Below are positions 26,001 to 32,000 of a stretch of 64,000 bases of DNA, in pieces. The stretch lies in the UHGV virus genome UHGV-0039337. One strand, written 5' to 3'. Below the pieces are notes generated by a model, which was not told the origin of the DNA, made no database searches, and saw only the letters and a list, made by a program, of their open reading frames with translations. The DNA is from a virus. The translations under genes and the position numbers were made by a program. The stretch's first letter is position 1. Each line of letters opens with the position of its first letter.

Positions 26001-29000
26001 AAAACGTTACAGAAAGAAATATGCAAACTATAGCTAAAACTATTAATAGTGCCGTTAAGTATAACGATAAGACAAGAGAAAGTAAAGTAAAAGAGTTAGT
26101 AGATGTATTTGGTATTAGCAATTTCGATTTAGAAAGAGCTTTAGAAAATGCAAGTCCTGCCGAAATAAAAAGCAAAACTCTTATAACTAAAATAGCCAAT
26201 GAACAAATGTATAATTATATAGATGATCAATTAAAAACTGCAGCATATCTTGGCAATATAGTATATGTAGATAAAAACAACAGGAGAATGTTCTTGGAGG
26301 GCAAAAATAAAACAGGGCAAAAAATAGCTAAAATACCTAAACTTACTGTTAATGAAAATGGAACTATCAGTGCAATTATAGGTGGTAATAATTTATCTTT
26401 AGATTTAAAGAGTAAATATAATGAAGAAACTAAGACATGGGATATATCAACTAATTTAGATGAAGCATTCGGTAAAAAAGATTACTTCTTTAATATAGCT
26501 AGAACTAGAAAAAATTTAGGTGAAGAACCAGACCTATCTATGTTTAATCAACTTACCGGCGTTATTACAAAAGAAACTTACGAGAATTCTAGAATTACAG
26601 GACTAAAAACAGATTTAACGACAGTGAATAAAAGAATAGATTTATTAGATTCTACTAAGTCTATTCGTGATTTAGTTATGCCTGGAGGTAAATTAAATAA
26701 TTTATTAGATAACTATGAATCTGTTGATAGTAAAATGTTATCAAAAATAAGAAGCAATCCAAAGTTTTTTACTAAAGATGGTGGTTTAACTCCTCAAGGC
26801 TTTCAGGCTTTAGTCAATGATGTGCCTGGATTTGCTAAGTTAACATTAAATAATGAATCTAAATATTACAATGAAGTAATGGAAATATTAAATTTACTTA
26901 GCCCATCTAATAAAGAAACTCAATTAGCAAAAGGTACATTCCAAATAGGAGACAGAGTAATTGCAACTTTAACAAATAAATTAGATAATCCGCAACGTCC
27001 ACCTATGACAGGTGCAGGTAATATTTTTTACTTAAATAGAGAGGACATAACTAAATTAAAAGGGCTAAATGTTTTACCTGGTTCTATTATAGAATCTGAT
27101 GATACATTACATTTAATAGAAAAAGATACGGATGAATTTAGTTTAGTCAGTGATTTTAGAGCGCGTCAATTATATATGTCAGGTCCTAATCTTCAAGCAA
27201 GATTAAAATCATATGAAGATGTTATACTAAATGCTGATATAGATAATACAACTGTTGAACAAGCAACAGAAAAGAAAAAGAAAGCGATATATGAAAAACT
27301 TACTGACTTAATAACTAGTGGTACCTATGAACAATCTCGTATAGGTGATGCTAGAGTATTCGGAGAAATATTAAACAAACCTATAGATATTCAAAAATTA
27401 AGTGTCAATAAAGATGTTATAGGAGCTATAAACAATAATTCTGATGCTCAACAACTTGAAAAGTTAAGAGAATTATTTGGACAAATAAAAAGAGAAGAAG
27501 ACGGCAAATTAGTTTATGAAAGAAATAGAACTGGTACCATAATTAAAAGAGGAGAAACAGTAGCTGAATATTTAAGCTATGGAGATATCAAGCAATCATT
27601 TGGTAGCAAATTTGACATGGGTGTATTATCATTCTCTATTTCTTCTGATAATCAAGAATTAACTGATAAGAAAATAACTAAGATATTAAATGAATATTCT
27701 AAAGAGTTTTCAGAACTTGACGAAATAGAAGATCAAGACAAAATGCTTAAGAAGTTATTTGATGTGTTAAAAGAAAGAAATATAGATGCTACATATAAAA
27801 TATCTAATATTAATAGAGCATCTTTATTAAAAGTACAAGACTCTGGTGTTGAAAAAGGTATGACATTACTTCCTCAAGTTGGTCTTGGAAAATTAAATGA
27901 AGATGTAGCTGCATATTTTAAATATTTAGGATCTGGATTTAATGAAGGCGCTGTTCCTACTAATGAAGCTATAAAAGCATTACATGAAGATATAGCTAAA
28001 CGTGAAAACATAACTGTAGAAGAATTAATACAGCAAACTTCTGCTAAAGTTAAAGCAGAAAGAAAAGACTTTGCTGGATTTAGCAATATGCAAGATCTTT
28101 TAGGTTTAGTTAAAGACGAACGTGAAGCTATGGCAGTTATGGCGTTTGGTCCTAATGGTCCTTTTAATGGCTTTGTTTCAATTGCTAATGACAATATACC
28201 AAAGCATGAGAATATGGGATTATTTATAAGTTCTAATTTTGAAGAAGCGATATATAAAGTATCTAAAGCATCCGGAAAAGATCAAAAGGATGTGGCGGCT
28301 GAATTGACGAATGCAATGCAAAATAACGATAGTATAAATTTTATTCGTCATACAGTTAACGGTATGTATGATAATACTAAAGGATATAAATATAACGTTG
28401 ATAAGTCTGGCATGGTTATTATTAATGGTGGCGAAGGAGAAGAATTAGTAGTTGATAACGAAAAATTCACTAACTTCTTTGAATATGCTAATGATTTAAT
28501 AATTAAATACAATGCTAAAGCTACTGAAAATGAAAAACTTGTGCATGAAAATGTATGGAGCTATACGGATGAAGGATGGAAAAAATACGATAAAGATAAT
28601 CCGTTAATAGGTAACTTTGTATTTGAAAAGAGAAAATATAACGATGAAGAAAGATTAGTAGTTACTGGAGCCACAAACCATTCTACTCATGCCATCATAA
28701 AAGATAGTGAAACTGAAAGTGGAGCAGTTCAAGAATACATTGAAGCTAAAAAGTTTATTAATAGAATGATTATAAAAGATCCTAATATATTAACAGATAA
28801 AGAAAAAGAAGACTTAAAATTAGCTAAGGAATTTGCTGCAGCTCAAAAAGAAAAAGTAAGTTTTGTTAAAATAGATGATAATACTATAACGTTATTGGCC
28901 CCCAAACGTTTTAATAAAGCAGTAGAAAGTGAACTAGGATACTTAGGAGAAAGATCTGGAGGTAAGCAACAGTTATTTCAATTAAAACAGATATTAGGAG

Positions 29001-32000
29001 ATAATATTTTATATAAAGATAATAAAGTTTCTTTTTCGGATGAAATAAAAAACACAGGATATTATGATGGAATATTAGATGAAATTAGAAGATATAGATA
29101 TTATAATCCTGTAGAAGAACCAGAGCTTACTGATGAACTATTAAAGACTGAACAATATTCATATTTAAAAGATACAGTTAAAATACTTAAAGATAGAGGT
29201 ATAGATAAAGTAGGCATAGGTAGTGTAGAAAATTTATATAATCTTAGTAAAAGTAGTGTAGCTGCTGAATTTAATAATAGTAAGTTATTTGATAAAGAAA
29301 AGTTTAATAACCTAATTGATAAACATGGATTTGAATTAATAGATATAAAAGATTATGTGCCTACTAATGGTGTTGCAGATACAACATATATAGAAAGTAT
29401 AAGAAATAAAAATATATTACTTGATCTTGGAGAAAATTTTAGTGACAATCAAAGATATATTGCTATACCTGCCGGTGGTCAAAGAATAGGTAATATGGAA
29501 ACCTTAAGTTCTGCACAAGGTAAAATAAATCAATTAAAAACACAATCTGATGTTATAAGAAGTTTAGAGATAGGCGCTATACCAGAAGGAGATACTGACT
29601 TACCTAGTAATGTAGTAGATAAATTTAGAAGAACTTCCGATAAAATGTTAGATATCAGAAATTCTATAATAGAAGAAGTTAACAAATATCCTGAAAAAGA
29701 TGGTGCTTTTTCTAGAGCAACAGTTGTGAATATGCCAGAATCAGCTAATCGTGCTAAAATATTATCTGTTACTAGTACAACTGTTACAAATGATATATTA
29801 AAAAATGCTGGATTAAAAAGCTATGTAGTAAATGAAAATAGCGAAGCATTTATGAAAAAAGCTATGATAACTATGGCAGATGGTACTAACGTATCATTAT
29901 TTGATTTGGAAAAAAGAGGCTACATACCTGATTTTGAAAGAGTAGGAATAGAAAAGTTTAGGGAAGCTGGTTACTTTAATCCTAAAGAAATGGCTAAGTT
30001 TGGTTTTACTGATTCTGATACAAAAGTAAATGAAGAGAGAATGATAGAGTACTTAGAAACTTATGGTACAGCTAATTTAAATATTCGTTATCCTCTTATA
30101 AAAGAAGAAAGTATATATGGTACAAGAACATATTTAGATAGATCGCTTGATGGAACAAATGCTAGAAGTGTAAGTTCTGCATCAATGCTTAAAGTAAATG
30201 GTGACTCTGACGGTGATAGTATGTCAACGCTACAGGTCAAAATAAGAGATACATCTTATGCTCTATATGAACATCAAAAAAGAGAAGCTATACAAGACTT
30301 AAAACAAGAAAACGCAGAATTAACACAAAATAATATTAAAAATCGCGTAGTCTCTAAAGGTATTATAACAGAAGATACTTATAAAAAATTTAATCAGTTT
30401 GAATCAGGCATGGCTTTAGAATCTATAATGGTTAACCCTAAATATCTAGAACAGGTACAAGCAGACATGTTAACTGATGTAGGTAACAATATAAAAGTTG
30501 GTAAAGCAACTGATTCTATATATCAACTAAAAAATGCTGAAAGTAATGTATTAAGAAACTTAAGAATACAAAGCAGAAATTATGCTTTAACTGGTAAAGA
30601 ATTACTTGCTAATGATAAACAAGTACAAGAAGCAATTAATATAGTGCTTGCTAATAATACAGAAGTATTTAAAAATACTCTTGATAATGCTAAAAAAATA
30701 TCTGATGGTTCATTAAGAGTCTCTGAAATAACGGGTAAAGAAAAATATCAAATCTTAGACAGAGCTATGTTAGGGTTAGAGAATTTAAAAGAAAATGAAA
30801 TAATAGATAGTGATACTTTTGGTTCAATGCAAAAAGCTATAATAGAAAGAGTACGTAATCAACAATTAGCAGAAGAAGCTACAGCTAAAGCTGGTAAATC
30901 TGTTATAGGTTCTGTTAATAAAAAATTAGCTGGTTTGCGTACTGTAGCTGGTACTGTATATAAGAATGAAGAATCGTCACTTTATAACCAATCAATGGGA
31001 AATATTTTATTTAAAGCTGCTGATGAAATAGAACAACAAGTTATATCAAGTAAGAAAATGGCATTTGAACTTGGTGAGATGAGAGCACAAGAAATAGGTG
31101 ATATTCTTAATAAAGCCGTATATGATAAAAACGGTGGCGGTATAAATGAAAAAGAAAAGTTAACTGATTGGTTAACTACATATATGCCAGAAAGTAGCAT
31201 TAACAAAATATGGAATAGCTTACCTACAGAAGTTAAAACTAAACATGAAGGTGAACGTGGGATAATAAAAAGTTTTATTACTGCTAATAAAAACTCTGGC
31301 TTATCTGAAGAAGAATTGACCATTAAAGCTAAAAATAAATATATAGCAAGTCAGATTATAGATGCGAGTAGACAAATACATAACACACCTGAATTATATA
31401 ATGCATATAAAGTGCAAATGAATATAGCTTATACGGGTTCAAATGCTGCAAATCTTTCTACTAGATTAGAGACTCCAGACATTACAGCCAAAACAGAAGT
31501 ATATAATATAACAAAAGAAATAACACAATCAGAATTAGGAGCTTCTTCAAAGAAGCCTGTCAAAAACTTATTTGAAGAACAATTTAATAATAAGTCAAAA
31601 AATAGTTCATTAGATATGTTAGATTTAACGGATTTTGCTGAATCTTTACAAAATTCTCCTGATATGCATAATGTTGAAGAACAAGCAACTGAAAAAGTAG
31701 CTACTGAATTACTGACACAAGTGCCTAAATTAAATGTAGGTTCAATTGGAGTAGCGGCTTTAGGTGTTGCGGCTGGTTTAATGGTAGCAGGTTATGCTGG
31801 AGGTGGCCATCAAAGACCTACTAAACCTCAAGATGATTCGCAACTTGTACAAGTACAACCTATGTTAGATGATGGCGAAGGAGATACAGGTATGAGACAA
31901 CAGGGATATATAATTAACATTAAAGCTGATACAAATAAAGGAGCTCGTCATTTAAAGAAGACGTTAAAAGATGTTGCTAAAGCTTCTAGTAACAATAGCG

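Follow-up and report, generated by a model that had tools for sequence, protein, structure and literature searches.

Injected RNA polymerases (RNAPs) let a phage begin its programme without the host enzyme. To our knowledge, injected RNAPs of the two-barrel type have so far come from two isolated lineages, the crAss-like podoviruses and the Thermus siphovirus P23-45. Their injection has been documented (PMC10770324; bioRxiv 10.1101/2020.03.07.982082), and the P23-45 enzyme, gp96, is a tape-measure-fused virion RNAP (PDB 8H2M/8H2N; PMC10770324). Among the crAss-like phages, phi14:2 encodes gp66, a giant RNAP of 2180 aa that is packaged in the virion and carries its two barrels in a single chain; it belongs to the gp66/QDE-1 clade (PDB 6VR4, 2J7N). 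For the virion RNAP of coliphage N4 (vRNAP; about 3500 aa), PMC13434306 describes injection, a mid-chain catalytic module, and N- and C-terminal domains for ejection and packaging. Here, we analyzed a 3025-aa protein from the tail module of an uncultivated jumbo phage with a contractile tail, and, judging from structure models, we consider that its central ~1500 residues probably form a complete two-barrel, multisubunit-type single-chain RNAP core.

RESULTS

The giant gene lies in a conserved contractile-tail block

In the window (the whole 64-kb stretch of virus genome UHGV-0039337 that was analyzed), the giant gene is located between sheath/tube genes and baseplate genes, all on one strand (Table 1). 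A sequence-only reading of this DNA had taken it for a tail-module gene of a phage with a contractile tail, and the sheath and baseplate-wedge genes identified here bear this out. The sheath, matching Moorella phage MTATph1 at 29.5% identity, gave the sole match among 50,697 phage records, tblastn and megablast searches of these records leaving the polymerase region and a 24-kb block unmatched. Neither tRNAs in the window nor a domain common to its giant proteins were found. The same reading had placed the gene directly downstream of the tape-measure gene; the gene order stands, but the upstream 2089-aa protein had no tape-measure match in Pfam or PHROGs. The synteny around the giant gene was kept in loci L001-L014, and the block of giant genes was conserved on homologue contigs reaching 271 kb.

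An RNAP made after infection rather than delivered by the virion, like the non-virion RNAPs of PhiKZ and AR9 or P23-45 gp64, could occupy such a position incidentally, and PhiKZ-like jumbo phages do have virion and non-virion enzymes alike (PMC13282480). We find this unlikely for a gene that sits within a co-oriented late structural block, from sheath to baseplate, conserved in very divergent relatives. Moreover, in its transmembrane helix, its strongly conserved C-terminal domain, and its length of 3000 aa, the product recalls ejected proteins, and an unpackaged late-expressed enzyme would be unable to start infection.

TABLE 1 Features of the giant gene and of the tail genes around it in the window
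Feature	Position (nt)	Strand	Basis or remark
Sheath gene	7910-10828	+	contractile-tail gene
Giant-protein gene	23012..32089	+	order: exonuclease, unknown region, beta-like, beta'-like, transmembrane helix, C-terminal domain
DEDDh (DnaQ-like) 3'-5' exonuclease-like domain, N-terminal, aa ~130-440	23399..24331	+	invariant Exo residues, weak PDB profile matches
beta-like (second-largest-subunit-like) RNAP module, aa ~1300-1760, approximate boundaries	26909..28291	+	structure comparison
K1607-x6-E1614-K1615-G-M1617, candidate nucleotide/RNA-3'-end-contacting lysines of the beta-type barrel	27830..27862	+	31/31 invariance of both lysines
YLGERSGGKQQ, aa 1977-1987, non-conserved look-alike	28940..28972	+	family alignment
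AIPAGGQRIGNMETLSS, aa 2151-2167, between beta-like and beta'-like modules	29462..29512	+	family alignment
beta'-like (largest-subunit-like) RNAP module, aa ~2280-2780, includes catalytic barrel	29849..31351	+	fold, invariance
NIRYPLIK, aa 2357, R2359-x-P2361, counterpart of beta' NRAPTLH	30080..30103	+	invariance, predicted strand end
D2398-S-D2400-G-D2402, predicted metal-binding catalytic loop	30203..30217	+	invariance, predicted loop
Predicted transmembrane helix, aa 2909-2927, VGSIGVAALGVAAGLMVAG	31736..31792	+	hydropathy scan; Gly/Ala positions kept in family
C-terminal domain, aa ~2950-3025, GYIINIKADT...INMN...DIENIINNFM	31859..32086	+	conservation profile
Baseplate-wedge gene	42011-42823	+	contractile-tail gene

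A family of metagenomic homologues and a deeper sister family

The translation confirmed the 3025-aa open reading frame and placed the four peptide strings quoted in the sequence-only reading where that reading had put them. With aa 1700-2600 as the query, a word-indexed search over 5.8 billion proteins returned no homologue, so that a full HMMER scan of the protein set was needed; it yielded 51 homologues (clusters at 50% identity), mostly of 2836-3165 aa and all metagenomic. An IMG/VR scan gave no match with the single sequence as the query and succeeded with an alignment-based one. A deeper branch, a sister family of ~2700 aa, has the same layout with DYDTD in place of DSDGD; it retains the exonuclease, the EKG of the K1615 region, the RYP preceding DYDTD, the transmembrane helix (at its Gly/Ala positions), and the C-terminal domain. 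The latter domain is the most conserved part of the whole protein, and a peptide pattern drawn from it pulled out 15 IMG/VR loci, the sister family among them. Such a domain may have a role in virion incorporation or tail-tip docking. Literature searches turned up no account of these proteins, and we regard them as a genuine new family of RNAPs that combine beta- and beta'-type parts in one chain, inside a giant tail-module protein.

Conservation was scored over 31 full-length homologues, in all of which R2359, P2361, S2367, D2398, D2400, G2401, and D2402 are invariant, as are K1607 and K1615 (31/31), while K2229, R2247, and K2249 show little or no variation. D.DGD is found in all homologues and fragments spanning the site, at identities down to ~20%, and the catalytic triad and R-x-P are unchanged across 20-84% identity. 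The invariance at ~20% identity of the catalytic aspartates, the intervening Gly, R-x-P, and two lysines is the pattern expected from purifying selection on catalysis, not on the fold alone. It therefore speaks against a structural or ejection protein that keeps an RNAP-derived fold without polymerase activity and serves as a scaffold, tail-lumen plug, or channel former, as does the retention of DYDTD, RYP, and EKG in the sister family. The giant size, the transmembrane helix, and the giant neighbours are typical of ejection or cargo proteins, and sequence-significant matches to active RNAPs were absent, both in keeping with an inactive fold; on balance, we give that explanation a low probability.

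Structure models match RNAP large subunits

RNAP families were not recovered by sequence searches. The full 3025-aa protein had no match in Pfam (E<=1) or PHROGs, with Pfam gathering thresholds not reached; phmmer and a family-profile search of PDB sequences retrieved nothing relevant, and no significant alignment came from running hhalign with family sub-profiles on the individual sequences of E. coli beta, E. coli beta', and gp96. Structure prediction and comparison did favour the two-barrel RNAP core of the sequence-only reading: two independent models, both built on shallow alignments of 31-36 sequences, had solely RNAP large subunits as top matches. RNAP subunits align over 317-384 residues for the beta'- and beta-like parts, well beyond the barrels. 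The best structural matches of both halves were the AR9 and PhiKZ beta/beta' fragments and cellular, plastid, poxvirus, and ASFV subunits, and in the models both core halves look closer to cellular beta and beta' than to other phage enzymes.

The beta'-type half carries the predicted catalytic loop

NIRYPLIK and DSDGD had been proposed as beta' motifs. On the structure model, R-x-P...DxDGD is correctly assigned to beta', because both motifs are invariant, the predicted fold agrees, and the family member P0019 matches Pfam RNA_pol_Rpb1_2 exactly across its DFDGD, albeit below threshold (E 0.0061; 17.3 bits against a gathering cut-off of 25.3; the best Pfam match in the family). In model 1, NIRYPLIK stands at the end of a predicted strand (664-669), and DSDGD, within NGDSDGDSMS (starting at aa 2396, nt 30197), lies in a predicted loop leading from a helix (700-705) to a strand (714-719), the same arrangement as in beta'; the secondary-structure elements around R-x-P...DxDGD follow the order of the beta' barrel. 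The model has a beta'-type barrel (DPBB-A) with a DxDxD loop and matches the largest RNAP subunits and bare DPBB domains, ~320 residues aligning with beta' homologues. A 50-residue helix is predicted at aa 2600-2650, where the bridge helix is expected, and E2674, I2678, K2681, and K2682 are conserved at the expected distance.

Across the six reading frames of the window, D.DGD occurs only once, and the beta'-type motif match is, judged on conservation in the homologues, far beyond chance. Fortuitous motif matches without any polymerase could draw on the fact that two of the four motifs proposed earlier are chance look-alikes; the other two, however, are invariant, and two independent models match RNAP large subunits at the top, so that we regard this explanation as already refuted.

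The beta-type half lies upstream of the interval first proposed

Both barrels had been placed in one chain, marked by the quoted motifs. Structure comparison supports a two-barrel core, but the second, beta-type module for the partner barrel (DPBB-B) was found upstream of the interval flagged earlier (Table 1). Model 2 predicts strands at 606-611 and 615-620 that contain K1607 and K1615, and the K-x7-K-G spacing equals that of E. coli beta (in the rpoB sequence, K1065...K1073-G). In a structure-based alignment, a 'KG' at strand beta4 of the second barrel is universal (PMC10770324, Supplementary Fig. 8); K1607-x7-K1615-G fits this motif, and the residues may be equivalent.

Of the canonical beta motifs, RHGNKG and GGQRFGEME were not found in the giant protein, only the K-x7-K-G spacing being retained (aa 1607-1616). 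The strings formerly matched to them, YLGERSGGKQQ and GGQRIGNME, are chance look-alikes, unconserved and outside the beta-like module. In the family alignment, YLGERSGGKQQ falls in a variable, unalignable stretch, and GGQRIGNME gives way to the consensus RYxAVPGxGxxxGDxE, with R2158 replaced by Q in the 84%-identical P0001; within AIPAGGQRIGNMETLSS, only RYxA[IV]PGxG...E is conserved. Homologues thus uphold the beta' motifs of the sequence-only reading and neither of its beta strings. In beta, GGQRFGEME sits in a connector past the barrel, outside the barrel itself (PMC10770324, Supplementary Fig. 8). Two other stretches, aa 2135-2254 (the AIPAGG... string and R2247-x-K2249) and aa 1778-1905 (with invariant D1898 and E1900), were weighed as the beta-type barrel and demoted.

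An N-terminal DEDDh exonuclease-like domain

The N-terminal domain presents the Exo I (DxE), Exo II (NxxxFD), and Exo III (Hx4D) motifs of DEDDh exonucleases in order, and D145, E147, N315, D320, H417, and D422 are invariant in the 31 full-length homologues. The family profile weakly matches PDB DEDDh exonucleases with the three Exo motifs aligned (9mrc_A, E=0.0017; RNase T, TREX2, and PolB exo); no Pfam family exceeded threshold. We know of no RNAP with a fused proofreading-type exonuclease, which counts against the RNAP reading. Archaeal PolD, likewise built on two double-psi barrels, operates together with an exonuclease subunit. One alternative is a two-barrel polymerase of different function, either DNA polymerase/primase-like as PolD, with the DEDDh domain as proofreader, or RNA-dependent like QDE-1. 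We deem it improbable, since RNAP subunits score higher and align far past the barrels, whereas PolD and RNAPs have only barrels in common (PMC10770324); moreover, the gene belongs to the structural module, not to a replication module, and the exonuclease-like domain is ~850 residues distant from the beta-like module in sequence.

In all, the present analysis establishes the folds, motif invariance, domain layout, and synteny, and, on the structure models, a single chain holds both halves of a cell-type RNAP core plus a predicted nuclease and membrane anchor.

DISCUSSION

We propose a model in which the giant protein would be built into the particle alongside two neighbouring giant tail-module proteins and expelled via the contractile tail upon infection. 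Its C-terminal helix would anchor it at or in the membrane, where it could transcribe the first phage genes without the host polymerase, as gp66 and gp96 do, while the exonuclease may act on host or phage nucleic acid. By analogy with these enzymes, the protein probably enters the cell along with the DNA and there initiates phage transcription; from the features above, we infer catalytic activity, the type of template and product, virion packaging, ejection, and the role of the exonuclease. More tentatively, the whole 3025-aa polypeptide could be a self-contained, tail-delivered transcription and nuclease machine combining the beta+beta' core, DEDDh exonuclease, contractile-tail expulsion, and membrane anchoring by the C-terminal helix and domain. 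If so, transcription by this machine would help to draw in the jumbo genome as it enters, its exonuclease would attack host nucleic acids or trim transcripts, and the machine would be the first multisubunit-type RNAP known to pass through a contractile tail.

The lineage is widespread in metagenomes, with 51 clusters plus the sister family, and the giant gene could be used as a marker for this jumbo-phage clade. The protein could link, in evolution, the split RNAPs of PhiKZ-like jumbo phages with single-chain phage enzymes, and its compact single-chain beta+beta' core may offer a route to a minimal multisubunit-type polymerase. It would also be a test case for the exit of a folded module of >1500 residues from a virion. 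A caution follows for annotation: Pfam, PHROGs, and profile-based annotation overlook such enzymes entirely.

Among known systems, YonO of the Bacillus prophage SPbeta, compared by description only, is likewise an RNAP in one chain with homology to the multisubunit enzymes. YonO is much smaller than the giant protein, and we know of no description of it as a virion protein. N4 vRNAP shares the giant size and the mid-chain catalytic module, but it is a T7-like single-subunit 'right-hand' polymerase of unrelated fold. In comparison with the PhiKZ/AR9 and cellular enzymes, the giant protein has K-x7-K-G and R-x-P...DxDGD at cell-type spacing, and PhiKZ and AR9 are themselves jumbo contractile-tailed phages; the cores of those enzymes, however, are spread over 4-5 sequence-recognisable polypeptides, whereas here one chain within a 3025-aa protein is invisible to Pfam. 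Compared with cellular enzymes, the giant protein also lacks beta RHGNKG, beta GGQRFGEME, and the Phe of NADFDGD. Like gp66, it is encoded beside other giant, presumably virion, proteins and has a DxDxD loop, the DYDTD of the sister family recalling gp66 DFDID. It is nevertheless analogous to the gp66/QDE-1 clade rather than a member, since that clade was not the closest in structure (shared connector, extended helix), and analogous to P23-45 gp96 rather than a member of its type, with neither detectable homology nor an RNAP at the N terminus of a tape-measure protein. The arrangement had been called previously undescribed; virion two-barrel RNAPs are known from gp66 and gp96, but what is new is the lineage, how much of beta+beta' the chain spans, its fusion to an exonuclease, and its occurrence in a contractile-tailed jumbo phage. 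The giant protein would thus represent a third lineage of injected two-barrel RNAPs, without sequence-detectable similarity to the crAss-like or P23-45 enzymes.

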